Below are positions 2,528 to 41,047 of a DNA stretch of 64,000 nucleotides, piece after piece (positions within the stretch are counted from its first letter, which is position 1; every line of letters starts with the position of its first letter). The translations under genes were made by a program, and so were the position numbers. The stretch lies in contig CP166615.1 of the NCBI GenBank assembly GCA_041937175.2, positions 2,528,001 to 2,592,000 of the forward strand. The letters are read 5' to 3'. Under the pieces are notes generated by a model. The model made no database searches. It saw only the letters and a list, made by a program, of their open reading frames with translations, and was not told the DNA's origin. The DNA is from Limnothrix sp. BL-A-16. Lineage in GTDB: Bacteria > Cyanobacteriota > Cyanobacteriia > CACIAM-69d.

Positions 2528-3832
2528 TCAGGTGGGTAACCAGGTTTGCACCACGCGCCCCGCAATTTTGTGACCCAGCCATGGGGTGTTCTGGGCCAGG
2601 GACTGCAATTGGGCCGGCTCCACTGTCCAGGTGGCGGCGGGATCAAACCGAATCAGGGGCTGGGCCTGACCAGGGCCGATCGGTTGGGGCATTTGGCCCA
2701 ACAACTCGGCGGGCCGCTGACTGAGCGATCGCCACAGTTCCAGCGCCGTCAATTCCCCAGTCATCACCAACCCTGACCAGAGCAAGGGCAAGGCCAACTC
2801 CAGCCCGATCGCCCCTTTGGGTGCTTCGGCAAAGGCGACGGTTTTTTCTTCGTAGGTGTAGGGGGCATGATCCACAGCGATCGCGTCGATCGTCCCGGCT
2901 TTGAGGGCGGCGATCAGGGCCTGGCGATCGGCAGGATTACCCAAGGGCGCAGACAGGTGCAGGCTGGGATCGTAGGGCGAAGGGGGGCGATCGCTGCCGG
3001 GCAGAGGTCGCCGTCCGTCAATGTGGCTGGTGTCGCAGAGCAATTGCAACCAAGACAGGCTGGCCGTGAGGGGCAACCCATCGGCCTTGCCTTGGGCCAC
3101 GAGGGCCGCAGCTCGACCGGTGGCCAAGCGCATCACATGCAGGCGGGCGGGGCGATCGCGCAGCAATTCCAAGAGGGTGGCGAGGGCGCTGCTTTCGGCC
3201 ACCGCCGACACCCCCACCAACCCCAGCCGCAACGCCTCAACGCCTTCCAGAACGGGGCCGCGACTGGCGGAGGTACTCTGACCCATCACCATCAACGGTA
3301 ACCCCAAGGGCCCCGCATAGTCCAGCAGCCGTTCCATCAAGACCCAATCCCGGATCGATCGCCCGTCGGTGAAGCCCACAATGCCCGCAGTGGCTAACTC
3401 TGCCAACTCGCTCATCTGTTCCCCCTGGGCCCCTTGGGTCAAGGCTCCCCACAGGTGCAGATGGGGGCTTGGCTCCGGCAAGGCTGCCCAGCGATCGCGC
3501 AGGTTTTGCACCAGGGCGGGCTGATCCATGGCCGGTTGCGTGTTGGGCAGCAGGGCCAGGGTGGTGAACCCGCCGGCCAGGGCGGCGGCGGCCAAGCTAG
3601 CGAGGGTTTCTCGGGACTCATGGCCCGGTTCGCCCGATCGGGAATAGCAATCCACCAGGCCCGGGGCCAAAATTTGCCCCGCCGCCTCAATCACTTGGGT
3701 TCCCTCGGGCAGGGCCCGGGGATCCGGGTCGATCGCCCGCACTTGCCCCTGATCCAGCAAGACCGTGGCCGGTCGATCAACCTGGGCCACCGGGTCAATC
3801 AGGCGAATTTCCCGTAGCAGTTCGATCGTCAT
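2528..3832 (-). CDS. pyrC: Dihydroorotase family protein (probably inactive PyrC'-type)
   Basis: ILAPGLVD..SGEPG, AALAGGFTT, PNTQP, IDAIAVDHAP, NTPW motifs; HxH metal site replaced by YSR. Confidence 0.85.
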   Translation of the reverse strand: MTIELLREIRLIDPVAQVDRPATVLLDQGQVRAIDPDPRALPEGTQVIEAAGQILAPGLVDCYSRSGEPGHESRETLASLAAAALAGGFTTLALLPNTQPAMDQPALVQNLRDRWAALPEPSPHLHLWGALTQGAQGEQMSELAELATAGIVGFTDGRSIRDWVLMERLLDYAGPLGLPLMVMGQSTSASRGPVLEGVEALRLGLVGVSAVAESSALATLLELLRDRPARLHVMRLATGRAAALVAQGKADGLPLTASLSWLQLLCDTSHIDGRRPLPGSDRPPSPYDPSLHLSAPLGNPADRQALIAALKAGTIDAIAVDHAPYTYEEKTVAFAEAPKGAIGLELALPLLWSGLVMTGELTALELWRSLSQRPAELLGQMPQPIGPGQAQPLIRFDPAATWTVEPAQLQSLAQNTPWLGHKIAGRVVQTWLPT

Positions 3833-6337: not shown

Positions 6338-6642
6338 AAGGTCTGGATAAGTAGCTATTGCAATCGTTCTGAGCAACCGCCCCGAGGGAGCGTGGCGAGC
6401 GACGTAGCTAAGTCTTTTGTAACTGGCTGATCGCAATCCTGACGAATTTTCTATTAAATCGTTATCTTAAATCGGGTTGGACTGTTTTGTCTGTATTCAA
6501 ACAATCACCTTAATCAATTTGCTTGTGAGCATCAATTCATTTGAAAATATTTCACCCTCTTTTTTCACTCTAGCTTTTGAATGATTCCAGTTTCATGAAC
6601 ATCACCATGAGCATTACAAAAACCAGGAGTCCCCCCCTAATA

Positions 6643-18770: not shown

Positions 18771-21700
18771 CTAAACCAAGATGAAGTCCTGGCTGTTCAC
18801 GAATTGCAAGGCGGGGATGCCCTGAAGACGAGCGATCGGGGTCTCGCCCGCCCGAACCAGGATCGAGTTGCCCTCTTCCACAAAGGACAAATCGGTAAAT
18901 CGCAACCCACCGGCCAGCGCGATTCGGTCATTGTTAGCGAAGTAGTCAGAAATGATGTCCACGCCGCGATTGAGACCGATCACAAAGGTGTCAATTCCCT
19001 CGCCCCCAAAGAGCACATCATCCCCTTGATCACCGGAGAGCACGTCATTGCCCGCGCTGCCCGTGAGGGTGTCGTTCCCCTTGCCCCCAAAAAGGGTGTC
19101 GTCATCCTCGCAACCATCCAGTTGGTCATCGCCATCGTTGCCAAAGAGCAAGTCATTCCCGGCGTTACCGGACAACACATCGTTATCGGAAGCCGTGCCA
19201 ACGGACTGGGGCCGATCGGGATTGTTGCCGTAGAGGGTATCGTTGCCCGCTTCACCGCAGAGGGTGTCGTTGCCCCGATCGCCCATCAACAGATCCAACC
19301 CAGCACCACCCCAGAGGTAGTCATTCCCCTGACCACCCCGGGCCGTGTCGTTGCCATCTTCGCCCGCCAGGCTGTCGTTGCCATCGTTGCCCAACAGCAA
19401 GTCTTCATTGCCGCCGCCCAACAGCAGATCGTTGCCGGTGCGATCGGGATCCCGCGTGTTGTTGTTGCCACCAATTAGGGTGTCGTTGCCCAGGTCACCG
19501 GACAACACATCATTGCCCTTATCGCCATAGAGCAAATCGTTGTCCTTACCGCCATACACCAAGTCATCCTCTTGACCGGCATAGATGGTGTCCTGGCCCT
19601 GGCCGCCATTCAGGTTGTCTTGGCCACGACCGCCATAGAGCAGGTCATCGTCCGCGCCGCCCCCGATCGGGACATTGCTGCCGCCGCTGCCCAACAGGGT
19701 GTCGTTGCCCAGGTCACCGTAGAGCACGTCATTGCCCAAATCGCCCAGGATCAAATCATTATCCCGGCCGCCAAAGGCCGTGTCCTTGCCGTCGCCCCCG
19801 GAGAGGGTGTCTTGGCCTTCGTTCCCATAAAGCAGGTCATCGCCGCCCAAGCCAAACAACAGGTCTTGGCCGTTGGGATCGGAAATGAGGCGCACGCCGG
19901 TTCCACCGATCAGGGTGTCGTTGCCCAGGTCACCGATCAGAATGTCGCTACCCCGATCGCCGTGCAGCAAGTCGGCTTCCTTGCCGCCACGGATGTAGTC
20001 ATCCCCTTGGCCGCCAAACACCGTATCTTCACCTTCATTGGCGCTGATTACGTCGTTTTCGGTGTTGCCAAAGATCAGATCCCGATCGCTCGGATCCGGC
20101 CGGTTATCCGGGCGACCCTGGCCGCCGATGATGGTGTCGGCTCCTTGGTCGCCACGCAGGATGTCACTGCCCCGATCGCCCAGCAGAATATCGTTATCCT
20201 TGCCGCCATTGATGATGTCTTGGCCATTACCGCCAAAGATCACATCATCACCCTCATTCCCGTTGAGCAGATCGTTGCCCTCGCCGCCACCGAGGCGATC
20301 GGCATCCACCCCGGAACCCACCGCAGCACGATTGCCCAGACCACCAAAAATGGAATCGTTGCCAAGGTCGCCAATCAGTTCATCGGAACCGGGGCCGCCC
20401 CGCAGGCGATCGTTCCCCGCAAACCCCGACACAAAATCGTTGGACGCTGTGCCCACCAAATCATCATTACCCGGCGTGCCCAACAGTCGGTTCCCGCCAG
20501 TTTCGGGCGGCGGCGGAATCACCAACGCGGGTAGCTCAGGCACAATCAGAGGATTGGGAATTTGCCAGGAAGCCGCCAACGGCGAGGCCACACAACCGCA
20601 ATTCGGGGCCGCACCCGCCACATCAGTAAAGCTAGTGATGAAGAAGGGTAGATCTCCCAAGGCCCTATTAACCGGAGTGGGCGGCGTGGGTGGCGTGCTC
20701 GCCACCGAAATTCCCGGCGGCGCAATAAAGGAAATCGTGCCACTGATCAGGCTGCGATTGCCTTTTATATCAATCACATCGAAGGTCAGAAAGTCCTTAC
20801 CCGTGAAATCGGCCCGGGGAATAAAGAACAGATTGCCGAATTCTTCCGGAGTCAGGAGGCCCGTGCTGGTGATTTTGCGCCCCCCATTGAACGGATCGCC
20901 CACGTACAAGTCACCCAAAGCCGGTAGGCGGGTGATGTTGTAATTTTTGATGGAATCGCTGTTCGGGTCGATCGCCGTGGGTGGTAATCCCCCCAGTCGA
21001 AACTTGGCAACCCCGTTTTCGGGAGGCTCGGTCAAATCCGTGGCCGAGCCGGGAACCACGTTGAAGATCCCGTTCAAGGGAACCGGCGGTTCGGCAATAA
21101 TTTCCGGGCGATCGAACAATACCGTTGCTGAATCTGGACTCAGGTTCCCCTTGTCATCCCTGGCGGAGTACTTGAAGAACCCTTTGCCATCCGGTGACTC
21201 AAACCGTAGGTTACCGACATTTCCCGGCGGAATCGATTGCCCCGCCGACAGGGAAACCTTCGCCCCCGTCAGTGGATCGAGCAGAAACAGTGAACTCCCC
21301 GGGGGAATTTCCGTAATCACAAATTCCCGAATCGGATCACTATCGGGATCCGCCGCCGCCAACGGAATGGAACCATTGGGGTTATAGGGCAACACCAAGT
21401 TGAGCGGGGTCGGCGGTGTATTCACACCCCCCACCACGCGCGTCGCATCGGTCGCTGTAATCACCTGGGGCGCGAGGGGCCCCAAATCCGGATCAAAAAG
21501 CCCGGCCGGAAGGGAGACTCGGGCCGTGTTGGTGATCACCCCGGTAGCCGTCTCCGAAAGGCGACCCGACACCTGGAAGGTTTTCGTTTCTCCAGCATTG
21601 AGCGCCAAGCCAATCCCGGGAGGAGCCAGCACATTGGGATTCCAAACGGGACTGAGCAACTCTGCCGGGGGCGCATCGGACAGATTCAGCAAAAACGGGG

Positions 21701-23348
21701 CCGTAATGTCGCAGCCCCCGGTGTTGGAGATCGTAATGCTGTAGGTAATGGTGCTGCCGGGCAGTACTGCTTCTAGACCATCGGTTTTGGTGAGATTAAT
21801 GTTGGGCTTGATCGGCTGGCTGGGCAACGTTCCCAGGTCACCCACGCTGATTGCCTGATCGGAGGTGAGGGCTACACCGTTAATCACGGTTCCCGCTGGA
21901 ATCCGTGTGCGGGCCACCAGGGACACGGCTCCCGAATTTTGGTCAATCCGATATAGCCCTGCACCACCCGGGTTTTGACCCGTTGTGGTGGCATAAAGGT
22001 TGCCATCGTAACCTAAGGCTAGCCCTGCGAAGGGAACACTGTTTTTGGTTAAGAGTTGCGCCGAAACTGGGATGGGAGTGCCATCAAAAGGTTTAGCCAA
22101 CTCAGTTGCCGGGATCCTATAAAGACGACCGGTCGTTGGCCCGTTAGCGGGGCTCCGCAAAACCATGAGCAGTGATCCATCGATGGGATCCACCGCAAAG
22201 TCACCACTGGTGGAGCCACTCACCCCATCATCAGGTGGCAAATCATCAGGGTTACTGGAACCGATGATGCTCGTGATTTGCAGTCTTTTGGAGAGAATTT
22301 GGCTGGAGGCGGCTGTGGAAGCGGCCACATTAATAAAGTCGATCGTCCGACCACTGCCCGCAATTAGGTTCCCCGCCGTATCAAAGGCTAAGCGCCCAGA
22401 GTTGAGGGTGTTAGGCACGGGAGTGCCACTGCCACCGGCTAAATCGGTGACCTGGATCGTACCGCCCCCGTTGGGTAAGCCATAGATGCGGTTGGAGTTG
22501 GGTTCACGGGCGATCGCGTCGCTGGCCAGGAAATTAGCCTGCTGTAGCTTCACTTCTCCCGTGGCCAAATCAACCGTTACCAGGTCGTTTTGTCCACCAC
22601 TACCATCGAAGTTGGCGATCCCAAGGAATTGGTTGGGAATACAGGGAGCCAACAGACCGGGATATTGGGCGATCGCCCGTTGCGTGAAGGGCACTTGGGC
22701 TTGCAGGGGCCCGGTCGATCGATCCAAGCGCCAAGATCCACCCCGATCGGCCGCGCCCACGAGGCTGGTGGCCGCGCCCACGGTTGCTTGGGTCAGGTGG
22801 GCCAGGGTTTCAATCAGTTGCTGCCCCAAGATGCCGGCCCCCGTGCGGCAACCATAGAGCAAAATTTCGGCTCGATCGCTCAGCAACAAAGCCCAACGCC
22901 GCAGCCAGTCCCGCACATCCCGAGACAGATCCGCCGCAGACAGCCCCCGATCGCCCAACTGCAACCAGCCCGGTTGACCGTGAGCAATCACATGGAGTTG
23001 TTGAACCGGTTTTTCAGCTAAGGCTTGGGTCATTTGGGCCCAAGCTGCTTCCGTTGGCTCCAACCTCAGCACCCTTGCGCCGGGCTGCACTCCCTGAATC
23101 AATTGGTCGATCGCTTCTACCCTTGCATCAATCACAACCAGGGTGGATTCAAGGTTGTTGGGCTGGCGTGACTGAAAAGACGTAGACAAAACAATCGATC
23201 GATCGGTGGACTGCAATGAGCCATCAAAATGTTGATCTTGCGAATCACAATTTTGATCATTGCTTTGGCGTTGCATCGATGATGAACCCTCAGCAAAAAT
23301 ACTCAGAGTAGTCAACCCAGACGATTGTGTTGATTGATGCGTGCTCAT
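18771..23348 (-). CDS. Large secreted protein: DUF4347 + propeller-like region + DUF11/Ig-like + RTX hemolysin-type Ca-binding repeats
   Basis: LHVIAHGQPGWLQLG / ILLYGC (DUF4347), LTKTDG..PGSTITYSITISNTG (DUF11), many GGxGxD repeats, T1SS-like C-terminus. Confidence 0.9.
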   Translation of the reverse strand: MSTHQSTQSSGLTTLSIFAEGSSSMQRQSNDQNCDSQDQHFDGSLQSTDRSIVLSTSFQSRQPNNLESTLVVIDARVEAIDQLIQGVQPGARVLRLEPTEAAWAQMTQALAEKPVQQLHVIAHGQPGWLQLGDRGLSAADLSRDVRDWLRRWALLLSDRAEILLYGCRTGAGILGQQLIETLAHLTQATVGAATSLVGAADRGGSWRLDRSTGPLQAQVPFTQRAIAQYPGLLAPCIPNQFLGIANFDGSGGQNDLVTVDLATGEVKLQQANFLASDAIAREPNSNRIYGLPNGGGTIQVTDLAGGSGTPVPNTLNSGRLAFDTAGNLIAGSGRTIDFINVAASTAASSQILSKRLQITSIIGSSNPDDLPPDDGVSGSTSGDFAVDPIDGSLLMVLRSPANGPTTGRLYRIPATELAKPFDGTPIPVSAQLLTKNSVPFAGLALGYDGNLYATTTGQNPGGAGLYRIDQNSGAVSLVARTRIPAGTVINGVALTSDQAISVGDLGTLPSQPIKPNINLTKTDGLEAVLPGSTITYSITISNTGGCDITAPFLLNLSDAPPAELLSPVWNPNVLAPPGIGLALNAGETKTFQVSGRLSETATGVITNTARVSLPAGLFDPDLGPLAPQVITATDATRVVGGVNTPPTPLNLVLPYNPNGSIPLAAADPDSDPIREFVITEIPPGSSLFLLDPLTGAKVSLSAGQSIPPGNVGNLRFESPDGKGFFKYSARDDKGNLSPDSATVLFDRPEIIAEPPVPLNGIFNVVPGSATDLTEPPENGVAKFRLGGLPPTAIDPNSDSIKNYNITRLPALGDLYVGDPFNGGRKITSTGLLTPEEFGNLFFIPRADFTGKDFLTFDVIDIKGNRSLISGTISFIAPPGISVASTPPTPPTPVNRALGDLPFFITSFTDVAGAAPNCGCVASPLAASWQIPNPLIVPELPALVIPPPPETGGNRLLGTPGNDDLVGTASNDFVSGFAGNDRLRGGPGSDELIGDLGNDSIFGGLGNRAAVGSGVDADRLGGGEGNDLLNGNEGDDVIFGGNGQDIINGGKDNDILLGDRGSDILRGDQGADTIIGGQGRPDNRPDPSDRDLIFGNTENDVISANEGEDTVFGGQGDDYIRGGKEADLLHGDRGSDILIGDLGNDTLIGGTGVRLISDPNGQDLLFGLGGDDLLYGNEGQDTLSGGDGKDTAFGGRDNDLILGDLGNDVLYGDLGNDTLLGSGGSNVPIGGGADDDLLYGGRGQDNLNGGQGQDTIYAGQEDDLVYGGKDNDLLYGDKGNDVLSGDLGNDTLIGGNNNTRDPDRTGNDLLLGGGNEDLLLGNDGNDSLAGEDGNDTARGGQGNDYLWGGAGLDLLMGDRGNDTLCGEAGNDTLYGNNPDRPQSVGTASDNDVLSGNAGNDLLFGNDGDDQLDGCEDDDTLFGGKGNDTLTGSAGNDVLSGDQGDDVLFGGEGIDTFVIGLNRGVDIISDYFANNDRIALAGGLRFTDLSFVEEGNSILVRAGETPIARLQGIPALQFVNSQDFILV

Positions 23349-24783: not shown

Positions 24784-26178
24784 TTATGGATTCGTGAGCG
24801 TTTGCAAGGTCAAAACCTGGGGCGGAGTGGCATCGGGGGGATAGATCAGGCTGACTTGCACGAGCCGATCGCCCTGGGGGGGTAATTGCACGGTCGCGAG
24901 GGGCTGACCCGGTTCTCCTCGGCGCTGCACCAAATGCACATATCGCGTTTGTGGCAACCCCCGATCGTCGGGGTATCGAATGCGGACGGTTCCCCGAAAG
25001 AAGACCGAGTTGGGCAACGGATCGAAAAACTGCAACCCAGGCGCGGGCGCATCAAATTTCACTGGTGTTTCTAGGGCGATCGCCACCGTCTGCGGTTGGG
25101 CTGTGGGGTTATGCAGGGGCAAGGTGAGGTCATATTCAATCCCGTAGTTGCCGTGGGCGGCCCAGGCCGTATCCGGGTAGCGAGCCACGATCGGGGCGGT
25201 TTGCACTTGCTCAGTCCCTAACCGACCGGCAACCAGGGTGCTCACACCATAGGAAAAGGCTGCACCGGGGGCGGGAATGCTGAGGCGTGGGTTGTTGGGC
25301 CCATCGGTGACGATCGCGCGCCAACGGGACCCGATCGCCACGCCGGCCACCCGGCCATAACGTAGGGGGCCCGGTGCGCCGGGGGCCGTGGGAACCGGCT
25401 CGCGTGGCCCTGACAGGGTTCCGGTGGTGAGTGTGGATCGCCAGTCCGCTTCCGTGGGGGGCTGTTCTCCACCGTCGGGGGTTGCCTGGGCAAAACGGGC
25501 GAGGGTAGCGGCATAAACCGGGCGATCGCTGTCCAGACGCAGCAGGGTGGAGCGACCGTTCAGGGGTGGATTGAGCGATCGAACCGGGATGGGCAAACTG
25601 GTCAGCACAATTGTCTCGCCCGGGGGAATGGTGACCCGATCGGGCAAATCCCCTTGGCGGCGGCCTCGCAACACCCAATCCACCGCTCGGCTGCCGGGCC
25701 CCGAGTAGACCTGGCCGATCGGGTTATCCACCATCGGCGGCAGGGCAATGAACGGCGCATCAGGCTGGCTGAGATAGCTGGCCCCCTGAAGAACTCGCAC
25801 CGTTGCCGATCGGTTGGGATCCGCGTTGCCCAACACAATTCCCACATAGAGCGATCGTAGGTCGATCGCCCCATTTGGCCCGGCTGCCTCCGCTTTGGCA
25901 ATGTGGTGGGCAAAAATATCAAACCGTCCTTGAAACACCTGATTAAGGTGCGCCTCTGGACTGCGCATTCCAGCAGGGGGAAAGGTCGAGAGCAAAATTC
26001 CCGCTTGCTGGACAATTTCTGGGCTGTTGCTATTCAGCACAGGCACAGCATCCAAATGCCCCGGGAGCGATCGAACTTCCTGGGGCCGTAGATTTGGCCT
26101 CGGACTCGGTGCAGGCGTTCCGGGTGGCAAGCCCTGCGCTCCCAAAATCCCCGCCAGTAGCCAGCTTGCCAACACCAT
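24784..26178 (-). CDS. DUF3370 domain protein
   Basis: LPGHLDAVPVLNSNSPE, GRFDIFAHH, AHGNYGIEY, YPPDATPPQVLT. Confidence 0.88.
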   Translation of the reverse strand: MVLASWLLAGILGAQGLPPGTPAPSPRPNLRPQEVRSLPGHLDAVPVLNSNSPEIVQQAGILLSTFPPAGMRSPEAHLNQVFQGRFDIFAHHIAKAEAAGPNGAIDLRSLYVGIVLGNADPNRSATVRVLQGASYLSQPDAPFIALPPMVDNPIGQVYSGPGSRAVDWVLRGRRQGDLPDRVTIPPGETIVLTSLPIPVRSLNPPLNGRSTLLRLDSDRPVYAATLARFAQATPDGGEQPPTEADWRSTLTTGTLSGPREPVPTAPGAPGPLRYGRVAGVAIGSRWRAIVTDGPNNPRLSIPAPGAAFSYGVSTLVAGRLGTEQVQTAPIVARYPDTAWAAHGNYGIEYDLTLPLHNPTAQPQTVAIALETPVKFDAPAPGLQFFDPLPNSVFFRGTVRIRYPDDRGLPQTRYVHLVQRRGEPGQPLATVQLPPQGDRLVQVSLIYPPDATPPQVLTLQTLTNP

Positions 26179-27022
26179 CCTTCAAACCCTCCCGCAACCA
26201 CAAAGCATTGCGGCTCCCATTATCTCAAACCAACGGCCCCTCCTTGGTTGCCGGCTGCTGGGGTTCCTCAACCCATCGCCCTAATCGAATCGAGCAACTC
26301 GCAACCCTCGATCGCCCCAGCCGTGCAACTCCCCAGCGCAAAAAACCAACGTAGCCCAGCATCTATCGGCACTCAACAGCGAAATTAGCCCAAAAACGGG
26401 CTGAAACGTTTCATTTAGGGTTACTAACCTATTCGTGCCCCTTGGAAGCCGAAATAGTTCAACAGTCCCTTGGCAACAAAGCCACGACAACCCATCAGTC
26501 CCAAGAGGACAATGGCATCAGAAATCGCAATCGAAAATCCTGAGTAATTTTTGGAGTAATTCTTGGAGCAATCTTTGCAGAATCACCTGGGCAGAGTGAT
26601 CAATTTTTCGCCTAAAGGCTTCGTGATTTCTGACAAAAACATCCCGTGATGGCCGTCACCATAATTTAAATTTTTTCAGATTTTCAATCACCAGAAATCT
26701 TGCCCAAAAAGACTTTCAGCTTTTTTGTATTTGATCTTTACTTAATCTTTAAACTTTAAATAGACTTCATAAAACTGGCTTGCAATTAAAGATTCCGCCA
26801 AGAGCCAGAAAAACCCTAGACAGGCCTTCGTAAACACAGTACAAGTAAATCAAGAACCCAAAAGAGCGCGTGCTTTTCCAGGCAAAACAAGCGGACTAAA
26901 TCATTCACCGGTTTGGTAAGTGGGCGCGATCGACATCAAGGGTGCTGTCAGGAAAAGCGATTCCAGCAAAACTACCACTGCTCACCAAGAACATTCGGAT
27001 TAGGACTAGGAGGATTTAAATC

Positions 27023-27766
27023 GTGAAAGGTTTTATTTGGAAAGGCTTTGTCCTCGCAGCGGCTACCCTCGTCGGCACCATGTCTGCCTCCGCCGCCCGC
27101 GCATTGCAACTAACTCCCGAACAGTTGGCCCAATTTGATACTTACGTCCAACAGGAGCGCAAAGCATTCACGGCGCTGGAACTCTCGAAAATTAACCCCA
27201 ACAGCCTGAAGTGGTCGGGTGCTGCTGATTCGCTGGAAGTCTACTTCATCAACGAAGGCGCAGGTTATCGCAACCAGTTGCTCTTTTCCGCCAACGATGG
27301 CCCTTTGAGCACGGTCTTCAACGATGTGTCTTCCAAGGAGTCGATTTTGGCTGAGGCTGATGGCCCCCTGAAGCGGGGTCAAGGCGTGAGCCTCGGATCC
27401 TTCAGCAAAGGCAGCGTGATTGACTTCTTCCTGAACTCTGATGGTTACAGCCGTGGCGAAAACTACGCTGGCATGACTTCGGATCAGGTTTATGGCACCG
27501 GGACTTGGAACTTCTTGGGCGCTGATGCCAACCGCAATGGCGACAAGCTGCAACACATGGTTGCCTATGACCTGGGCGATGGTTGGACTCTGATGGGCTT
27601 TGAGGACATCGTGACCGGCGGTGACCTGGACTATAACGACACGGTGTTCGTGGTTCGTGGTGTGGCTGGCTCGAAGGTGGCAACGCCTGAGCCTTCGGTG
27701 ATGCTATCGCTGGCTGCTGCTGCGGCTCTGGGCCTGGTGTCCCGCCGTCGTCAGCAAGATAGCTAG
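27023..27766 (+). CDS. PEP-CTERM sorting protein with DUF4114-like domain
   Basis: Signal peptide, GFEDI..GGDLDYNDTVF, C-terminal TPEPS-TM-RRR; GGAGG RBS. Confidence 0.92.
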   Translation: MKGFIWKGFVLAAATLVGTMSASAARALQLTPEQLAQFDTYVQQERKAFTALELSKINPNSLKWSGAADSLEVYFINEGAGYRNQLLFSANDGPLSTVFNDVSSKESILAEADGPLKRGQGVSLGSFSKGSVIDFFLNSDGYSRGENYAGMTSDQVYGTGTWNFLGADANRNGDKLQHMVAYDLGDGWTLMGFEDIVTGGDLDYNDTVFVVRGVAGSKVATPEPSVMLSLAAAAALGLVSRRRQQDS

Positions 27767-28150
27767 ACCGCTCAAGTGATGCTGCCATGGGTTGCTACTC
27801 AACAGTAGGCAGATGATTGAAGTAGATGGTGGCTAGCGATTGCTAGTCGTTAGCAATCGCTAGCCATCAGACTGGCGGGTGAACCTTTCAATTGGGCTGA
27901 AGTTCCATCCGTCGGTTCGATCGAGCAATGGATATGGATTTGGTTCGGTAGATTATGGGTGAGTTGAGCAAAATCAACTCGCCCACCTTTTTTTGGGCTA
28001 TTTTTCGGCTTTTCGGCTACTTTTCGGCTACCTTGCGGGCAAAGGGTATTTTTTGGGAAAACTGCGCTTGGCCTGTGCCTAGCCTGTGCCATCATCTCCG
28101 GGTTAGGAATGCTGACCGGGAGATGATGGCTTTTGGACGTTACAGGATGG

Positions 28151-29125
28151 ATGGCGGCAACGCTGGCGGCTAGTTCGATCGCCCCGGTGGGGATGGCGCA
28201 CCATGGCGTGGGCTGGTTGGGGGCGACGGTGGCGGCGCTGTTTTGGGGGTCGTATCTGATCCCCGTGAAACGGTTGCCAGCGGTGGATCCTTTGGCGGCG
28301 CAACTGAGCATGGCGATCGGGATTGGGCTGTTGGCCATTCCGCTGGCGATCGCCTCTGGAGCTTGGATTCCCAATGGCTGGGGCCTGCTGGCGGGGGTGA
28401 TTTGGGCCTTGGGCAATTACGGCTCCATTTTTGTGGTGCGGGCCTTGGGTTTGGCGCGGGGGTTGGCCCTGTGGGCCACGATCGGGATTGGGGTTTCGTT
28501 TCTTTGGGGGGCGTTATTTTTTCGGGAGCCGGTGTTGTTACCGGTGGCCCTTGGGGGAGTGGCGCTGTTGGTGGCGGGAATTGCCCTGATGAATTGGCCC
28601 GATCGCCCAACCAAAACGCAACCCCCGATCGAACAATCCGCCCATCCACCGGCTAACCGATCGAGCCAACAATCCAGCCGCCGACTCAAAATCCAGGATC
28701 AGGGCTGGTGGCTTTGTGCCGTGGTGGGGTTGCTGTTTGGGTCGCAATCAGTCCCCTTTGCCTTTGCGGCCCAAAGCCCGATCGCCTTTGTGCCGTCTAT
28801 GTCCCTTGGGATTTTGGGAACAGCGAGTCTGTTGGCTGGGCAACGGGGAGGCCGGGTGTTGCGGCAGTTGCCCCGATCGAGCCTGTTGGCGTTGGTTTGC
28901 TCGGGAATGCTCTGGAATGTGGCGAATGTGGGCAGCTTTTTCGCGGTCGATCGCCTCGGGATGGCGGTGGGAATGCCCCTAACTCAGTTTGCGATCGTGG
29001 TGAATGCGGCCTGGGGTCTGTGGTTGTTTCGAGAGGTGACCGGTCGTCAGCGAATTTTGCGAGTGGCGATCGGGACGATCTGCGCCTTTGGTGGAATTAT
29101 TCTGATTGGAGGATCGCGGCTTTGA
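28151..29125 (+). CDS. DMT-superfamily transporter (GRP/GlcU-like sugar transporter)
   Basis: Two 5-TM halves; FWGSYLIPVK, GVIWALGN, WGLWLFREV; start uncertain. Confidence 0.75.
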   Translation: MAATLAASSIAPVGMAHHGVGWLGATVAALFWGSYLIPVKRLPAVDPLAAQLSMAIGIGLLAIPLAIASGAWIPNGWGLLAGVIWALGNYGSIFVVRALGLARGLALWATIGIGVSFLWGALFFREPVLLPVALGGVALLVAGIALMNWPDRPTKTQPPIEQSAHPPANRSSQQSSRRLKIQDQGWWLCAVVGLLFGSQSVPFAFAAQSPIAFVPSMSLGILGTASLLAGQRGGRVLRQLPRSSLLALVCSGMLWNVANVGSFFAVDRLGMAVGMPLTQFAIVVNAAWGLWLFREVTGRQRILRVAIGTICAFGGIILIGGSRL

Positions 29126-29237
29126 GGATTGTTGGATTTTTAAGTTATTGGATTTTTCAGGCGCTTGGTCTTCGATCTTTGATATTTCGTCTGTATAAAG
29201 CCTTTGCCTAAAGCAATCAGCCTGTCACATTGCAGAT

Positions 29238-29300
29238 GCTATGGAGGCTAAAACTGATTTGCCAAGCGTTGCCGCTATGCCTATTAAGCGAGGTGAAAGC
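29238..29300 (+). repeat. Degenerate 63-bp direct repeat, copy 1 (left of VWA island)
   Basis: Aligns without gaps to 31125-31187, 47/63 identical by my count. Confidence 0.75.
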
Positions 29301-29753
29301 TATTGGCCAGTGAAAGAGGTCGATGCACTTGCATAACTCTAGTCACGATAAAATTTCCTCGAAGGGGAGTGTGCTTCCGCAGATGAAGGGTAAAACCCAG
29401 AATTTTGGGCAGAGACTAAAGTCGATTAATGACACCCCACCGGGAAAGTTGATTTCGCGCTTGCCATCCAATACACAGTCGGGCTACCTTATACTTGCAG
29501 TAAAGTTCTTAGATTGTTGGTAGCATAAGCATCACCAAACGTCTTTTGAAAAAGATGCAGGTTTTAACTCGCTTACTAGGCATGGTTGTTCGTAGGGAAG
29601 CCATGCCCGCCTAGATAATTGCTTCATGGCATCTGTGATATGGCGCACCGATCATCCTAGGTAAAGACTGTGGTTTGAAAAACTAGTAGCAAAAATGGTT
29701 GATTACGCATTTTACTATTTTCTTATTCAAGCGTTAAACCCAGGAGTAATTGA

Positions 29754-30989
29754 GTGAGCGAGCCGAACAAGAGATATACAAGTTCATTATGGGAGAAAAT
29801 TGTAGCTGTCATTTTGGCGACTGGAGTAATTATTTCTTTTATTTACTTTGTTTTCAATCCCCCAGCAGAAAACAGTGCAGCTCTTCCAATCATTAGATTT
29901 CTCGCTGCTACTGCTTCCGGCCTATCTGCTTTTTTATTCGTTGGTGGACTTGATTTAGAAGCAACACTACCCTTCAACAAAGGAGTTGTTCGGGCAGCGG
30001 GTGGATTTGCAGTTTTTATTGCAGTTTTTTTTCTATTCTTTTATGGAATTCCCAGTAAAAATAATACTTTAGTTTCTCCATCCCCTGAGTCTAGTTCTGC
30101 TGCTCCAACCATTAGTCCTTCGCCGCTTGTCACCCCCTCTACAGATAGTGTAGGCGACAACAAGCAGGCTCTAACTACCAAAAGCTCCCTCATCCTAATT
30201 CTAGACGCATCTGGTAGTATGAACACGACTTTTGACAAGCAATCAAGAATAGATTCAGCCAAAAAGGCTGTGGAGAAAATAGTTGAAGAACTTCCCTCAG
30301 AGAGAGAATTTGGCTTAACTGTTTATGGAAATGAAAATGCAAATTCTTGCAATAGCTTAAAAACCTTAGTGGATTTAGGAGATATAAATCGAAGCTTTGT
30401 TTTAAGTCAGCTTTCTAAAGTAGAAGCCATGGGATCGACCCCAATTGCGGCATCAATTCAAGAAGTAGCAAAGACCATAAAAAATCACAGAAAAGAAACA
30501 ACGATTGTACTAATAAGTGACGGAGAAGAAAGCTGCGGAGGCGATCCATGTCAAGTTGTCAAACAATTAAAATCAGAAGGCTATAAATTTACATTTCATG
30601 GCGTTGGGGTTGATACGAATTCGCAAGCAGATCAACAATTGTCTTGTCTTGCGAGGGAAGGAGGTGGGTTCTATTTAAAAGCTGATCCTGGCAACCCAGG
30701 TGGAATATTAGAAGAATTAGAAAAAGCTACATTAGGAGGTCAGTTTCGTATCAAAAAACCTAAAGATTCGAGAATAGACGGCTGGAAAATCACCCTATCT
30801 GGCAGTAGTTCTCAAGACCCAGTTCTTCTTGTAAAAAAGCAATCGGATTCTCAGCTTTGGAGAACTTATCCACTTGATAGTGGATCTTACGATATTTACA
30901 TTTTTATTAGAGATCAGCAAAGTGCTGTTCAAGTTGGTCAGGCACAAGTCATGAAGAATCAAATTACAGAGTTTGATACAAAAAGATAG
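29754..30989 (+). CDS. Membrane-anchored von Willebrand factor A (VWA) domain protein, low GC
   Basis: Three N-terminal TMs, Ser/Pro linker, LILDASGSM (DxSxS), GSTP, ISDGEESCGGDPC MIDAS motifs; AGGAG RBS. Confidence 0.9.
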   Translation: MSEPNKRYTSSLWEKIVAVILATGVIISFIYFVFNPPAENSAALPIIRFLAATASGLSAFLFVGGLDLEATLPFNKGVVRAAGGFAVFIAVFFLFFYGIPSKNNTLVSPSPESSSAAPTISPSPLVTPSTDSVGDNKQALTTKSSLILILDASGSMNTTFDKQSRIDSAKKAVEKIVEELPSEREFGLTVYGNENANSCNSLKTLVDLGDINRSFVLSQLSKVEAMGSTPIAASIQEVAKTIKNHRKETTIVLISDGEESCGGDPCQVVKQLKSEGYKFTFHGVGVDTNSQADQQLSCLAREGGGFYLKADPGNPGGILEELEKATLGGQFRIKKPKDSRIDGWKITLSGSSSQDPVLLVKKQSDSQLWRTYPLDSGSYDIYIFIRDQQSAVQVGQAQVMKNQITEFDTKR

Positions 30990-31015
30990 GAGAAATTTCC
31001 AGACTTGCAATGACA

Positions 31016-31104
31016 GCCTAAATAATCCCATTGCACACCGACTACATCAAGTTGACTGGCAGTTACGAGAAATGACTGGCAGCAGGTAAACAGGAGCGTT
31101 AAGT
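31016..31104 (+). mobile_element. Degenerate attC-like integron recombination site
   Basis: GCCTAAA(~RYYYAAC)..ATTGCACACCGAC....GCAGGTAAAC-AGGAGC-GTTAAGT(GTTRRRY); 89 bp, starting 27 bp after the VWA stop. Confidence 0.55.
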
Positions 31105-31124
31105 AGATGGTCGTCATTCCCCCG

Positions 31125-31187
31125 GCTATGGAGGCCAGCACTGATTTACCATGCGCTGCTAGTGTGCTTATCAAGCAAGGTAACAAC
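31125..31187 (+). repeat. Degenerate 63-bp direct repeat, copy 2 (right of VWA island)
   Basis: gctatggaggccagcactgatttacca... versus gctatggaggctaaaactgatttgcca... Confidence 0.75.
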
Positions 31188-31218
31188 CGTCTTTGAATAT
31201 CCGAGTTTGTATATCTGA

Positions 31219-32178
31219 ATGACGGGAGAAACCGGCGCGCTCAATCAGGGTTGGGTTTATCAAGATTGGGTCGATCGCGCAGCGGCGGGCCTCACCCTCT
31301 TGGCCTACTACAGCCAACACTATCGACACTCCACAGAACAGACTTGGCGCGATCGAATTTTAGCGGGTCAAATTTTGGTTGAAGATTGCCCGGCCAGTCC
31401 TCAGCAAATTCTGCGATCGGGACAACGGTTGACCTACCATCGCTCTCCTTGGGTGGAACCAACCGTGCCCCTCGATTTCGCAGTGCTCTATGAAGATGCA
31501 GATCTGTTGGTGGTGGCGAAACCCGCTGGCTTGCCCGTGATGCCGGCGGGAGGTTTTTTGGAACATACCCTGTTGCGGCAATTGCAAAAACGCTATCCAC
31601 AATCCAGCCCTGTGCCCATTCACCGACTGGGGCGCGGCACTTCCGGTTTGGTCTTGCTGGCCCGATCGCCCCAGGCCCGATCGCACCTGACCCAACAAAT
31701 GCGCGATCGACAAATACATAAGGTCTACTGGGCTTTGGCGGTGGGTAACGCTCCCCTGGATCAGTTTCGGATTGAGCAGCCGATCGGCAAAATTCCCCAC
31801 CCCCAATTGGGGCATCTTTACGGGGTCACCCCGGATGGAGCCTTTGCCCGCAGCGATTGCCGAGTGTTGCGGCGGGATCATGACCAAATGTTGGTCGAAG
31901 TCACCATTCTCACGGGCCGCCCTCACCAAATTCGGATTCACTTAGCCGCCGCTGGATTTCCCCTTGTGGGCGACCCGCTCTATGGAGTCGGTGGACAACC
32001 ACGACTGACCCCGATCGCGCCGGAGGCCTCCAGAGATCCCGAGGCGATCGCCCTGCCCGGCGACTGTGGCTATTGGCTCCATGCCCAAACCCTCGTCTTT
32101 CGCCATCCCCGCACCCAAGCCCCGATCGAGGTTTCTTGTCCTGCGCCGTCGCAATTTGGCCAACCCGCCCATCGTTAG
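31219..32178 (+). CDS. RluA-family RNA pseudouridine synthase homolog (catalytic Asp replaced by Gly)
   Basis: VVAKPAGLPV, HRLGRGTSG, TGRPHQIRIH, GDPLYG, WLHA. Confidence 0.9.
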   Translation: MTGETGALNQGWVYQDWVDRAAAGLTLLAYYSQHYRHSTEQTWRDRILAGQILVEDCPASPQQILRSGQRLTYHRSPWVEPTVPLDFAVLYEDADLLVVAKPAGLPVMPAGGFLEHTLLRQLQKRYPQSSPVPIHRLGRGTSGLVLLARSPQARSHLTQQMRDRQIHKVYWALAVGNAPLDQFRIEQPIGKIPHPQLGHLYGVTPDGAFARSDCRVLRRDHDQMLVEVTILTGRPHQIRIHLAAAGFPLVGDPLYGVGGQPRLTPIAPEASRDPEAIALPGDCGYWLHAQTLVFRHPRTQAPIEVSCPAPSQFGQPAHR

Positions 32179-32243
32179 CACCAAATCTTGAGCGCCAGAT
32201 CTTGAGCGCCAGATCTTGAGCACCAAATCTTGAGCATCAAATC
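32177..32243. repeat. 14-bp tandem repeat (about 4.5 copies) between convergent genes
   Basis: agc(a/g)cca(a/g)atcttg units. Confidence 0.85.
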
Positions 32244-33193
32244 TAGGGAGCTTTGGAACCCGCCGCCGAACCGCCGATTTGCACATTGGGCGTTTGGATG
32301 GTTGGGGCTTGCTGACCGTTCCATTTTTCAATGCGAGTCCGTTCCACCCGCAACCGTTCCAGCTCCAATAATTGCGGGGTAATGGAACCCGCCCGCAGGC
32401 GATTGGACTCCGCCTCTGCCCGGGCCTGCTCGATCGTCACCAACGCTTCTCCCTTGGCCCTCGCCACATTGGAAGCCGCCTCCGCTTCCACTTTGCGACG
32501 ATTGGCCTCGGCCGTTTGGGCCGCCTGTTGGGCCGCAAACTGTTCGTTAATACTTTTTTGAATGTCCGGGGGCAGCCGCAACGGCCCCAACAGGGACACA
32601 TCTTGAACAGTGATGAACTGAAAGCGCCGCTGCACACAGGCCCGCACCGTTGCCACCAATCGCTGCTGACTGGTGGGCACTTGCACAGGGGTCAGGGCTA
32701 AGGTTTCCGCCGCTTCCGAAAAACAATTTCTCAGCCCATTTCTCAACTCATTTGCCCGAAACTGATCGGGGGTTTTGCGATAGGTTTCATAGAACTCATG
32801 CAGTCTAGTTCTGGTGGTGTTGGGAATCGCTTCCGTAGAAAAACCAAACGATAGGCCCACATCCGCCGAAACGGGACTACCGGCTACGGAAAACACGATC
32901 GACTCATCAACGGGTGAGCCTTCCGTTGTTTCTTTGGTGAAAGGATAGGTATTGACAAAGGTTGGAAAAACAACAATTTCTTCCGTGTAGCCATTAAACC
33001 AAACACGCCCCGAAACCAATTCAGCTTTATCAATTCCTTTGCTGCCACCATAGAGTTGAATTTTGAGGCCGGCATACCCTGGCTCAACGGTGGTGATGCT
33101 GGTTCCGGGAATGATGCCACAGGCGTTAAGGGCTGAGGTAAGCAGGGCAAGAGCTGAAGTTTGGATGATTACTCGTTTTGGAAGTTTTGTCAT
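32243..33193 (-). CDS. SPFH/band 7/prohibitin family protein, probable lipoprotein
   Basis: LNAC lipobox, VEPGYAGLK, Ala/Glu-rich coiled coil, EKWNG C-terminus. Confidence 0.85.
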   Translation of the reverse strand: MTKLPKRVIIQTSALALLTSALNACGIIPGTSITTVEPGYAGLKIQLYGGSKGIDKAELVSGRVWFNGYTEEIVVFPTFVNTYPFTKETTEGSPVDESIVFSVAGSPVSADVGLSFGFSTEAIPNTTRTRLHEFYETYRKTPDQFRANELRNGLRNCFSEAAETLALTPVQVPTSQQRLVATVRACVQRRFQFITVQDVSLLGPLRLPPDIQKSINEQFAAQQAAQTAEANRRKVEAEAASNVARAKGEALVTIEQARAEAESNRLRAGSITPQLLELERLRVERTRIEKWNGQQAPTIQTPNVQIGGSAAGSKAP

Positions 33194-33355
33194 GGTTGAT
33201 TCTCACACCTTCAATCAAAAAACAGTTAAAAGGATGACTAGCGAGCATTAATCATGAATTGAACCAGCAATTGAGCAAAATACGAATCGAGACACCTATT
33301 AAAAATCAATTAATTTACTAACTTTAAATAAAGCTCGAATTGAGTCATGTTTTCA

Positions 33356-33486
33356 GAGGATGTCTGAAAAGTGTCTTTTGGCACGGGCAATGCACCAATA
33401 GTCTTGGGGGCAAGGGGCTTAAGCCCCTTGTCTTCGTCGATCGATGGGGCGTGCAGAGTATCGATTTTGGCTTTTCAGACATCCTC
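33356..33486. mobile_element. 131-bp MITE with perfect 16-bp TIRs, TCA target-site duplication and internal REP-like palindrome
   Basis: GAGGATGTCTGAAAAG ... CTTTTCAGACATCCTC; TCA at 33353-33355 and 33487-33489; CAAGGGGCTTAAGCCCCTTG at 33411-33430. Confidence 0.85.
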
Positions 33487-33966
33487 TCAGGGCGATCGGT
33501 GGGTGGATTGGATGGATTGTGACGGATCAGCAGCATCGGCAATAGGCCATTGATGATCAGTTGCCAGGTCAGGAGAATGCTGCAACAAATCCAAGGGCGA
33601 TCGATTCAAGGCGCGATAGGTTTCGTCCTGGTTGAGCAGTTGCAAGGTTTCGATCGCCTCCTCCACCGCTCGCGAAGAAATCGTCAGTAACTGCACAATT
33701 CGTAGTCGTCGATAGACCGGATCGTATTGCGCCAACAGGGTTCGGGCCCGTCGAGCATCTAGCCACCGCCACAGGCCATAACCCAGCGATCCAATCCAGG
33801 CGATCGGCACACCCAACACAATTGCAAACCCCAAGAGGGGCCAAGGGGAATTGAGAAAGAACGGTGCGATCGCAAAGAGAATCAAACCCAGCAAGATTTC
33901 TCCCAGGGCCGTGAGTAACCAACGTTGCCAGGTTTGAAGCGGCCAGCGCCGCCAGCGTCGTTTCAT
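33487..33966 (-). CDS. Hypothetical membrane protein (2 TM)
   Basis: Basic N-terminus, two hydrophobic helices, host-like codon usage; start uncertain. Confidence 0.6.
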   Translation of the reverse strand: MKRRWRRWPLQTWQRWLLTALGEILLGLILFAIAPFFLNSPWPLLGFAIVLGVPIAWIGSLGYGLWRWLDARRARTLLAQYDPVYRRLRIVQLLTISSRAVEEAIETLQLLNQDETYRALNRSPLDLLQHSPDLATDHQWPIADAADPSQSIQSTHRSP

Positions 33967-34230
33967 GGCTACCTTGCCCATCGCCTGTGCAATGGCATGT
34001 TGAATCGCCGGTTTCGATGTGCTGAGAAGTTGGGTGATTGCTCGATCGTAGCCAGCGATGCCCACGATTGCCCAGCGTTTGATCGATCGACCTATTGATC
34101 GACCGATCGATCGGCCTTGGGATTTACATCACCGGGGCCACGAAGCCGATCGACCTTGGCAAAATGAAATGAGCTGCCCCAGTTTCCGGGCCAGTAGCCG
34201 CATCGATCCACCCTCACCCCCCGATCGCCC

Positions 34231-38971: not shown

Positions 38972-41047
38972 CTATGCGTTCCCCTTACTCTTCGCGATGA
39001 TCGCCTCAGCGACGTTGCGAGGAACTTCGCTGTATTGGCTGAACTCCATCGAGAAGATACCGCGGCCTTGCGTCATCGAGCGAATGTCGGTGGCATAACC
39101 AAACATTTCTGCCAGAGGTACTTTAGCAGCAACCTTGGCCGTTCCGCTCTCGGAACCCATCCCTTCGATTTGACCGCGACGGGAGTTGAGGTTCCCCATC
39201 ACGTCACCGAGAAACTCTTCAGGAGCTTCAACCTCAACCTTCATCAAAGGTTCGAGGAGGACGGGTGCTGCTTTCATGACCGCCTCGCGGACAGCCATGG
39301 AGCCAGCAATTTTGAATGCCATTTCCGACGAGTCCACATCGTGGTAAGACCCATCGACCATGGTGACCTTCACATCGATCAGTGGGTAGCCTGCTAGGAT
39401 ACCGGATTCGCAAGCTTCGCGCATCCCCTGTTCCGCAGGGCCGATGTATTCCTTCGGCACCACACCACCGACGATCTTCGAGACGAACTCAAAGCCCGTC
39501 CCCGGTTCGCCCGGCTCAATTTCAACCACCACGTGGCCGTATTGACCCTTACCACCGCTCTGGCGGACAAATTTGCCTTCTGCCTTGGCAGCCTTACCGA
39601 TGGTTTCGCGATACGCCACCTGCGGCGCACCCACGTTGGCTTCCACGCGGAATTCCCGCATCATGCGATCTACGAGGATTTCGAGGTGCAGCTCACCCAT
39701 CCCAGCGATCACGGTTTGGTTGGTTTCCGAGTCAATGCTGACGCGGAAGGTCGGATCTTCTTCCGAGAGAGATTGCAGGGCCTTGGACAGTTTTTCCATG
39801 TCCTGCTTGGTCTTCGGCTCAACGGCCACCGAGATCACCGGCTCAGGAATGAACAGGGATTCCAGAATGACCGGATCGCTTTCGCTGCAAATCGTGTCGC
39901 CGGTAATGGTGTCTTTCAGACCCAGGGCTGCGCCAAGGTCGCCAGCACGCATTTCGTCTACTTCGATTCGTTCGTCAGCTTTGAGCACGATCAAGCGCGA
40001 AATCCGCTCTTTCTTGCCCTTGGTGGCGTTGTAGACGTAGCTACCCTTGGTGATCACGCCGGAGTAGACCCGGATGAAGGTCAAGCGACCATAGGGGTCA
40101 GCCATGATCTTGAAGGCCAGGGCTGCTGGGGGTGCGTTGTCGTCGGCCGGACGGGTCACTTCCGAACCGTCGGGCAGCAGACCCTTAATCGGGGGCACGT
40201 CGATCGGGGCGGGCAGGTAGTCCACCACGGCATCGAGCAGCAGTTGAACCCCTTTGTTTTTGAAGGCAGAGCCGCAGAGCATGGGGACGATCGTGCCGTC
40301 GATTGTGCCCTTGCGCAGCGCACCCTTGATTTCCTCTTGGGTCAGCTCTTCGCCTTCAAGATACTTTTCGGTCAAGGCATCGTCGGTTTCGGCAACCGCT
40401 TCCACCAACTTCAGGCGATATTCATCAGCCAGGTCAACCAGATCTTCAGGAATATCGGTTTCTTGGATGTCGGTGCCCAGATCGTTGGCGTAGATGTAGG
40501 CGCGCATCTTCACCAGGTCAACAATGCCGCGCAACTCAGATTCAGCCCCGATCGGGATTTGAACCGGCACCGCATTGGCCTTTAGGCGATCGCGCACCTG
40601 ACCATAGACCTTGTAGAAGTTCGCACCCGTCCGGTCCATCTTGTTCACGAACACAATCCGGGGGACTTTGTAACGGTCAGCTTGCCGCCACACCGTTTCC
40701 GACTGGGGCTGCACGCCACCCACCGAACAGAACACCGCGATCACACCATCGAGCACCCGCATGGAGCGCTCCACCTCGATCGTGAAGTCCACGTGACCAG
40801 GCGTATCAATGATGTTGATCTTGTGATCGTTCCAGCTCGTACTGATGGCCGCAGCGGTGATCGTGATTCCACGCTCACGCTCTTGCTCCATCCAGTCCGT
40901 GACGGCAGTTCCCTCGTGAACTTCACCGATCTTGTGAACCACGCCCGAGTAATACAGAATCCGCTCGGTCGTCGTTGTTTTGCCCGCATCAATGTGGGCG
41001 GCAATTCCAATATTTCGCACTCGTTCGAGCGGAATCGATCTGGCCAC
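38972..41047 (-). CDS. fusA: Elongation factor G
   Basis: [30 protein letters not shown]. Confidence 0.99.

Follow-up and report, generated by a model that had tools for sequence, protein, structure and literature searches.

Introduction

A single attC recombination site that accompanies a coding sequence (CDS) and lacks an integrase is termed a SALIN by Loot et al., who counted 3400 of them in 21,105 RefSeq genomes, and who also describe the insertion of integron cassettes at genomic GWT sites (attG) and possible domestication through loss of attC (bioRxiv 10.1101/2022.09.11.507474). A CALIN comprises at least two attC sites within 4 kb, again with no integrase, and Cyanobacteria are reported to encode integrons (Cury et al. 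2016, PMC4889954). As described by Nivina et al. (2016, PMC5027507), attC sites have an R'' box (RYYYAAC) and an R' box (GTTRRRY), together with extrahelical bases and unpaired spacers. For Cyanobacteria, a covariance model was derived from 51 chromosomal attC sites (Ghaly, Tetu and Gillings 2021, PMC8352920, supplement file 4); it is laid out as an R'' box of 7 nt, a spacer of 5 nt, a stem of 13 pairs in which one G and one A of the 5' arm are left unpaired, a loop, a 6-nt spacer and an R' box of 7 nt. Here, we analyzed a 64-kb stretch of the chromosome of the cyanobacterium Limnothrix sp. BL-A-16 (contig CP166615.1; hereafter, the window), in which a gene encoding a protein with a von Willebrand factor type A (VWA) domain is followed by an 89-nt attC-like element. 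Judging from sequence comparisons, we consider it probable (roughly 0.7) that the gene and the element are one integron gene cassette, extending from about position 29506 to 31098 and now alone in an intergenic region.

Results

An attC-like element follows the VWA gene

The two parts of the putative cassette are as follows.

29754-30989, + strand: putative cassette gene, 411 amino acids (aa); from the N-terminus, three predicted helices, a linker rich in Pro and Ser, a VWA domain that has a full metal ion-dependent adhesion site (MIDAS), and a beta domain (Pfam, AlphaFold and orthologues)
31016-31104, + strand: putative decayed attC, composed of R'' (GCCTAAAT), spacer, L'' arm (G and A unpaired), loop of 33 nt, L' arm, spacer and R' GTTAAGT (homology to copies (a) and (c) of contig L001, below)

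The element lies 26 nt after the stop codon of the VWA gene, in the same (+) orientation. Its boxes read GCCTAAA (R''), ATTGCACACCGAC (L''), GCAGGTAAAC (L') and, after the spacer AGGAGC, GTTAAGT (R', 31098-31104), the last of which fits GTTRRRY. attC sites are 57-141 bp long, a range that includes the 89 nt of the element. The boxes had been assigned in this way in a preliminary description of the locus, and the assignment agrees with the layout of the published cyanobacterial attC model: the unpaired G and A stand at the places of G16 and A23 of the model, and the spacers are 6 nt on both sides. Of the 13 pairs in the stem of the model, the element retains nine, where 2000 shuffles gave 3.2 ± 1.6 and at most 10, but its minimum free energy is no lower than that of shuffles on either strand.

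Better-kept relatives of the element on a metagenomic contig

A scan of genome contigs, in which an alignment of six VWA orthologues served as the query, found 172 relatives, of which 80 loci were kept. Among these 80, the only close relative (80% aa identity; next best, 46%) was on CAZGDE010000277.1, referred to here as L001, a 9.9-kb contig of a metagenome-assembled genome with a GC content of 0.42 and 33 open reading frames (ORFs). Positions 268-1616 of L001 and 29742-31082 of the window are 83.8% identical. L001 carries three attC-like copies; all are on the + strand, and each stands behind an ORF of that strand.

L001 1551-1638, + strand: copy (a), after the VWA gene; R'' GCCTAAC, end GTTAGCA
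L001 6569-6654, + strand: copy (b); recognized by fold and stem pairing
L001 8594-8681, + strand: copy (c), after a 503-aa ORF and before a gene with a helix-turn-helix (HTH) and a type II restriction endonuclease; recognized by the published profile, fold and pairing

Copy (a) is the orthologue of the window element, and its GCCTAAC bears out the earlier suggestion that R'' of the window element has decayed from AAC to AAA; R'' of copy (c) reads GTCTAAC. With the filter hidden Markov model (HMM) of the published Cyanobacteria model as the query, nhmmer was used to search a 1.27-Mb database made up of the window and the 80 loci. Copy (c) was the best match in this database (25.7 bits, E 1.5e-5) and was matched at full length, over positions 1-86 of 87, and copy (b) came second (13.0 bits, E 0.14), while ten block-shuffled databases peaked at 7.5-15.3 bits. 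By sequence, copy (c) is thus clearly significant as a putative attC and copy (b) is not. Both copies fold well on either strand (z -2.3 to -3.8, equalled by no more than 3 of 200 shuffles). When the four copies were placed on the published layout, the pairing was as follows.

Copy (c): stem, 13 of 13 Watson-Crick pairs; R box, 6 of 7
Copy (b): stem, 13 of 13 pairs; R box, 4 of 7
Copy (a): stem, 10 Watson-Crick pairs and 2 G.T; R box, 5 of 7
Window copy: stem, 9 of 13 pairs; R box, 4 pairs and 2 G.T

Among 2000 shuffles, the stem had 3.3 ± 1.6 pairs and never more than 9-10, and the unpaired G and A at the places given by the model, a 33-nt loop and 6-nt spacers are common to all four copies. 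Seven of the 13 pairs differ between copies (b) and (c) on both sides with the pairing kept. Structure thus settles the assignment of copy (b) as a predicted attC where sequence alone falls short.

The window element is homologous from end to end to copy (a) (z 22) and to copy (c) (z 8.2), and copies (a) and (c) are homologous to each other (z 10.1); in each case, none of 1000 dinucleotide shuffles reached the score. A covariance model built from copies (a) and (c) scored the window copy at 42.3 bits. Because the window element is homologous to copies (a) and (c), and because copies (c) and (b) fit the published model, we regard the element as a decayed member, by descent, of the cyanobacterial attC family. 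The layout shared with the chromosomal sites of that family, as modelled in PMC8352920, consists of a GCCTAAC-type R'', a 5-6-nt spacer, a 13-pair stem with an unpaired G and A on the 5' arm, a loop, a 6-nt spacer and a GTTAG-type R'. The window copy differs in its R'' (GCCTAAAT), in four broken stem pairs and in its profile score of 5.2 bits, and copies (a) and (c) share with it one extra base in the 5' arm.

In L001, copies (b) and (c) are 1.9 kb apart, and copies (a) and (b) are 4.9 kb apart; two covariance models found no additional site in the latter interval. As CALINs are defined by Cury et al. (PMC4889954), L001 fits the definition, with two sites 1.9 kb apart, a third 4.9 kb off and no integrase on the contig, whereas the window, with one site in 64 kb, does not. 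The better-kept members of the family, arrayed in one orientation on this low-GC contig, stand behind unrelated genes and match the published cyanobacterial attC model. The gene after copy (c) (L001 8822-9652) encodes an HTH fused to a type II restriction endonuclease (PADLOC REase_II, 2.1e-35), and would be a defence gene in a cassette position.

A 122-nt repeat (80% identity) was also observed in L001, at 2-123 and 6404-6525 and with a third, partial copy at 3501-3521. It contains TTAGGC/GCCTAA hairpins, and its copies end in GTTAGGC or GTTGAGC. The GCCTAA/TTAGGC pairing closes in one copy (z -4.1) but not in the other. The repeat was considered as a further, short attC, but neither the two covariance models nor the published profile matched it; it is possibly a second, short type of recombination site or a small mobile repeat.

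Borders of the putative cassette

The features that bear on the borders are as follows.

29505-29507, + strand: candidate left junction G/TT (the slash marks the crossover), inferred from a GTT 3-6 nt upstream of the start of homology in both loci
29511-29753, + strand: 5' leader of the putative cassette, common to L001 by alignment and split by about 130 nt found in the window only (29552-29681)
29733-29739, + strand: GTTAAAC heptamer, a chance occurrence inside the shared leader and no border, with homology running past both sides

On the right, the DNA common to both loci ends at the R' box, where integron integrases cut (G/TT). Positions 31078-31097 show 12 identities, 7 transitions and 1 transversion to L001 over 20 nt, and the comparison falls to background after the GTTA of R'.

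On the left, the GTTAAAC at 29733-29739, just before the ribosome-binding site (RBS), had been proposed as the cassette core. The heptamer is present at that position, but it is not the border, since homology with L001 runs through it. Over 29682-29733, 29 of 52 positions are identical to L001, a level reached by 2.6e-5 of 78,120 background windows, and over the 60 nt of 29682-29741 (L001 208-267) there are 31 identities, 19 transitions and 10 transversions. L001 reads ATT where the heptamer has its GTT, and GTTRRRY motifs are common: the two strands of the window together carry 129, or about one in every 500 nt, and those of shuffles 100.5 ± 9.6. Farther left, 29511-29551 matches L001 153-194 at about 80% (reached by 0 of 1000 shuffles). 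Upstream of 29511 and L001 153, no significant likeness was found (265 of 1000 and 619 of 1000 shuffles reached the score). The GTT of the candidate junction has its counterpart at L001 148-150.

If the G/TT junctions are right, the cassette would span about 29506-31098, the rejoined flanks would read AAAG/TTAAGT, and the empty site would read ...AAAG/TTAAGTAGATG... Since AAAG/TTAAGT fits the GTTRRRY and GWT consensus, insertion would have been at an attG-type site as such sites are described by Loot et al. (bioRxiv 10.1101/2022.09.11.507474).

Two other candidates on the left were set aside. The pairing of L001 GTTAGGC (111-117) with window GTCGGGC (29478-29484), which a global alignment had suggested, was dropped, as 619 of 1000 and 953 of 1000 shuffles reached the score, and a vestigial attC at 29206-29237 was only marginal (22 of 1000 shuffles). 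At the start of the stretch of about 130 nt found in the window only (29552-29681), the final part of the left 57-nt repeat described below recurs in inverted form (29559-29583, 84%). The stretch also includes a GGCATGG/CCATGCC hairpin, and may represent the insertion of a small element.

No integrase, second attC or promoter-like site in the window

The 83 ORFs of the window were scanned against family libraries, and none matched an integrase or transposase family, PF00589 included, as the preliminary description had noted for intI. That description also proposed a search for further attC copies; in the 64 kb of the window, neither the two covariance models (best other match, E 0.29-0.67) nor the published profile found any. 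Because there is no integrase match and no second attC in 64 kb, the locus resembles a stranded single cassette of the SALIN kind. No promoter-like site was found on the + strand at 28900-29754. The locus thus consists of one ORF followed by its putative attC in the same orientation, with no promoter-like site, which is the arrangement of a gene cassette, as cassettes usually lack a promoter of their own. A complete integron, with intI and attI by the cassettes, was not found among the ORFs of the window and L001.

As SALINs are described by Loot et al., the window resembles them in having one CDS and one attC with no integrase or other att site nearby, and in having flanks consistent with a G/TT (GWT) crossover. 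It differs in that its attC is too decayed for a profile search, so that software would probably not count it, in that its host is a filamentous cyanobacterium, and in that we infer the mechanism of insertion here.

The VWA gene and its product

The gene has an AGGAG at 29743-29747 and a GTG start at 29754, and it ends at 30989 after 411 codons; the RBS, the start codon and the low GC content (0.394) are as they had been described. The VWA domain occupies aa 146-307 (Pfam VWA_2, 3.8e-14; VWA, 4.8e-14). AlphaFold predicts three N-terminal helices at low confidence (block pLDDT about 40-65, residues 11-100), a Pro/Ser linker that is disordered, a VWA fold of high confidence and, at the C-terminus, a beta domain, with pLDDT values of 82-94 across residues 141-400, except for two 10-residue blocks. 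The view of the product as a membrane-anchored VWA protein thus has the Pfam domain and, at low confidence, the three predicted helices behind it. The MIDAS is complete (D151, S153, S155, T229 and D256), and it is invariant in six of six orthologues, as are four Cys residues.

The product and the L001 protein share 333 of 411 residues (81%). Because dN/dS between the two genes is 0.19 (dS 0.50), the VWA gene is under purifying selection. The protein is rare, with five proteins at 51-95% identity, and further relatives are about 40% identical over the VWA part only. The closest protein, P0001, is 95% identical; in another orthologue, P0005, the three helices are replaced by what, judged by eye, appears to be a lipoprotein-type signal sequence. 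A tblastn search of plasmids with the protein gave 172 records, all below 60% identity and none covering 80% of the query, and PADLOC gave no match for it.

Foldseek placed the VWA proteins 4fx5 and BatB 3ibs at the top of its matches. Like BatA/BatB-type proteins, the product has predicted membrane helices at the N-terminus and, behind them, a VWA domain that carries a MIDAS, and its fold matches BatB 3ibs (E 3.3e-11) and 4jdu. Unlike them, it has three helices rather than one or two and an extra conserved C-terminal beta domain, and its gene lies outside a bat/MoxR operon. The three helices and the positive charge of the N-terminus should place the VWA part on the periplasmic side, and the product is likely to be a periplasm-facing, metal-dependent binding protein of the BatA/BatB kind.

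The three-helix module (aa 1-100; window 29754-30053) recurs at 48-63% identity in P0056, P0061, P0060, P0080 and P0094. Behind it, two of these proteins have GUN4-like parts (about 270 aa) and three have a 560-aa region of no Pfam family, and the module has the look of a membrane anchor that can be moved between proteins. The next-nearest relatives of the VWA and C-terminal domains (L002-L080; 30-46% over aa 146-409) come mostly from Desulfobacterota, Verrucomicrobiota and Planctomycetota, and not from cyanobacteria.

The intergenic island and its neighbours

The putative cassette stands in an intergenic island with the following features.

29126-31218, no strand: low-GC island, free of CGATCG (the HIP1 core), between a DMT/GlcU-type transporter gene and an RluA-family gene (GC content and CGATCG gap)
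29238-29294, + strand: left copy of a 57-nt imperfect direct repeat, 77% identical to the right copy (blastn E 5e-7)
31125-31181, + strand: right copy of the repeat, 21 nt after the R' box of the putative attC, 77% identical to the left copy

Upstream of the island is a DMT/GlcU-type transporter gene (28133-29125; naming by Pfam and NCBIfam), and downstream an RluA-family pseudouridine synthase gene (31219-32178; TIGR00005, 214.8 bits, cut-off 192.7); these two genes and the VWA gene are all on the + strand. The sub-segments of the island have GC contents of 0.30-0.51, except for one 20-nt spacer (0.60), and the VWA ORF is at 0.394, compared with 0.61 and 0.59 for the flanking genes. The window holds 356 CGATCG sites, compared with 19 expected. 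None lies between the sites starting at 29067 and 31272, in agreement with the absence noted earlier for about 29100-31260. This gap of 2205 bp is the largest of 352 in the window (next largest, 1309; mean, 182), and gaps of that size are expected about 0.002 times. The CGATCG gap, the low GC content and the attC-like element are each beyond chance. Because the GC content falls from about 0.6 to 0.39 and the CGATCG gap is the largest of the window, the island is real and foreign in composition.

Other intergenic patches of low GC content (0.37-0.42) were observed at 26450-26900 and 33050-33350, the first of them in a stretch of sparse CGATCG (gaps 26309-26927 and 26927-27918). Low GC content alone is therefore no mark of foreign DNA in this genome.

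Both copies of the 57-nt repeat lie outside the block common to L001, and the repeat was not found in L001 or in the other 79 loci. Each copy reads as the start of a short ORF (MEAKTDLP... and MEASTDLP...), and the 13 differences between the copies are split 3, 5 and 5 over the three codon positions. Two small ORFs near the repeat, 29323-29523 (+) and 30959-31186 (-), had no Pfam match. The repeat and its inverted part-copy could be relics of neighbouring cassettes, which would favour the remnant of an array, or could equally be native spacer DNA.

Discussion

We propose that the cassette was excised from the chromosomal integron of a low-GC cyanobacterium or a similar donor, and that an integron integrase inserted it at a GTT in the spacer between the DMT and rluA genes, used as an attG-type secondary site. 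The attC would then have decayed, losing the AAC triplet of R'' and four of its 13 stem pairs, and with these losses we propose that the cassette is no longer excisable. The VWA gene would persist like any other gene of the chromosome, and its transcripts would probably come from the transporter gene, which has the same orientation, by read-through; this would be the simplest source of expression, since there is no promoter-like + strand site before the gene. Of the preliminary description of the locus as an orphan cassette, the attC relative, the decay of R'' and the absence of an integrase from the window thus stand, and the left border does not.

Several observations weigh against this interpretation. 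The R'' of the window element, GCCTAAAT at 31016-31023, departs from the consensus RYYYAAC, with its AAC triplet gone. The element folds no better than shuffles (top strand, z +0.17, 104 of 200 as good; bottom strand, z +1.93, 198 of 200), and single-sequence folding was dropped as a test of attC identity. In the profile search, the published Cyanobacteria profile gave it 5.2 bits (E 38), which is not significant, with L001 copy (c) as the top match, and found nothing at copy (a); this test used only the sequence (filter-HMM) half of the model and ran without a known attC as a positive control. The comparative evidence all comes from one contig, L001, and the assignment of the window element to the attC family accordingly draws on its homology to copy (c) and copy (b) there. 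Copy (b) alone is not significant by sequence, as one of the ten shuffled databases reached 15.3 bits. Several genes occupy the 4.9 kb between copies (a) and (b), a long interval for a cassette. None of the 33 ORFs on the 9.9-kb contig matched an integrase (PF00589); L001 begins 148 nt before the candidate junction, and an integrase may sit just beyond the end of this short contig. Finally, the left junction was placed by fading homology and is not sharp, and the simple insertion of one cassette does not predict the 57-nt direct repeat that brackets it.

It is possible, if somewhat unlikely, that the locus is instead the remnant of a short cassette array, or a piece of an array brought in by ordinary horizontal transfer and illegitimate recombination, with a real attC and decayed neighbouring cassettes. 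The homology break at R' shows that the cassette moved at some time, and not that the move happened here, and the low GC content and the lack of CGATCG extend over the whole spacer (29126-31218), beyond the part that has a counterpart in L001. The 57-nt repeat flanks the shared block on both sides, its copies could be the starts of two paralogous cassettes, and 29214-29235 is weakly like the spacer and R''-L'' part of an attC (22 of 1000 shuffles reached the score). Yet the two covariance models and the published profile find only one family member in the window, a CGATCG-free spacer of 500 nt is unremarkable at one site per 182 nt, and low GC content is also seen in other intergenic DNA of the window, such as 26450-26900.

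The reading of a single inserted cassette has also to be weighed against the view that the 89-nt element is no recombination site, being instead a conserved hairpin of the 3' untranslated region, a terminator or a dispersed cyanobacterial repeat that resembles attC. The weak folding of the window copy and of copy (a) would suit such a hairpin, as would the G.T pairs in copy (a), which favour the transcribed strand, and the presence in L001 of other TTAGGC/GCCTAA hairpin repeats (122 nt; 2-123 and 6404-6525). However, the copies stand behind unrelated genes, copy (c) tops an independent attC profile search, and the anatomy of attC is matched by the R'' and R' boxes, by the spacers, by the two bases left unpaired on the R''-L'' arm and by 13 of 13 pairs that hold through changes in both partners. 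There is no T run behind the element and no Rfam family match; a search of Rfam over 26000-34000 at E up to 1 gave a single chance match of the snoRNA type. We therefore regard this view as improbable. Even less credence can be given to the cassette exactly as first described, with its left border at the GTTAAAC core at 29733. That heptamer fits GTTRRRY and directly precedes the RBS, but homology to L001 extends at least 50 nt farther left, L001 has ATT at the position, and heptamers of this class occur 129 times in the window.

SALINs, attG insertion and domestication have already been described, and the surprise of the single-cassette reading for a specialist is moderate. What is particular to this case is that the attC has decayed below profile detection, and yet its boxes were correctly delimited from the DNA letters alone. 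Stranded cassettes have been counted so far only where the attC is recognizable, whereas the attC here lies below the reach of a profile search and was recognized through a better-kept relative. Counts of stranded cassettes made with standard software, which is not the tool used here, may thus be underestimates. The decayed and intact sites form a pair from a little-studied cyanobacterial attC family that could be used to test which features are needed for recombination.

Some broader suggestions are more tentative. We think it unlikely, though worth stating, that the locus is a cassette domestication caught in the act, in which a low-GC integron cassette landed at a secondary GTT of a distant HIP1-rich lineage and was frozen there by attC decay while its gene was kept by selection. 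The three-helix anchor, found on differing outer domains, may mark a set of surface proteins, carried on cassettes, that exchange their heads. The authors of PMC8352920 state, in reply to reviewers, that cyanobacterial and deltaproteobacterial attC and IntI sequences cluster together; this clustering and the placement of the nearest relatives of the VWA head in Desulfobacterota hint at cassette traffic between Desulfobacterota and cyanobacteria.

Other features of the window

Directly after the stop codon of the transporter gene, at 29129-29160, two 16-nt units stand in tandem (TTGTTGGATTTTTAAG and TTATTGGATTTTTCAG). On the - strand, 18771-23348 encodes a protein of 1525 aa that has a DUF4347 domain and 15 stretches of RTX calcium-binding repeats, and this gene holds the third-largest CGATCG gap of the window (21109-22340). 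The elongation factor EF-G encoded at 38972-41047 is at most 87% identical to those of named cyanobacteria (such as Trichocoleus, Funiculus and Leptolyngbya) and 94% identical to two metagenome proteins; the host belongs to a poorly sampled lineage of filamentous cyanobacteria.

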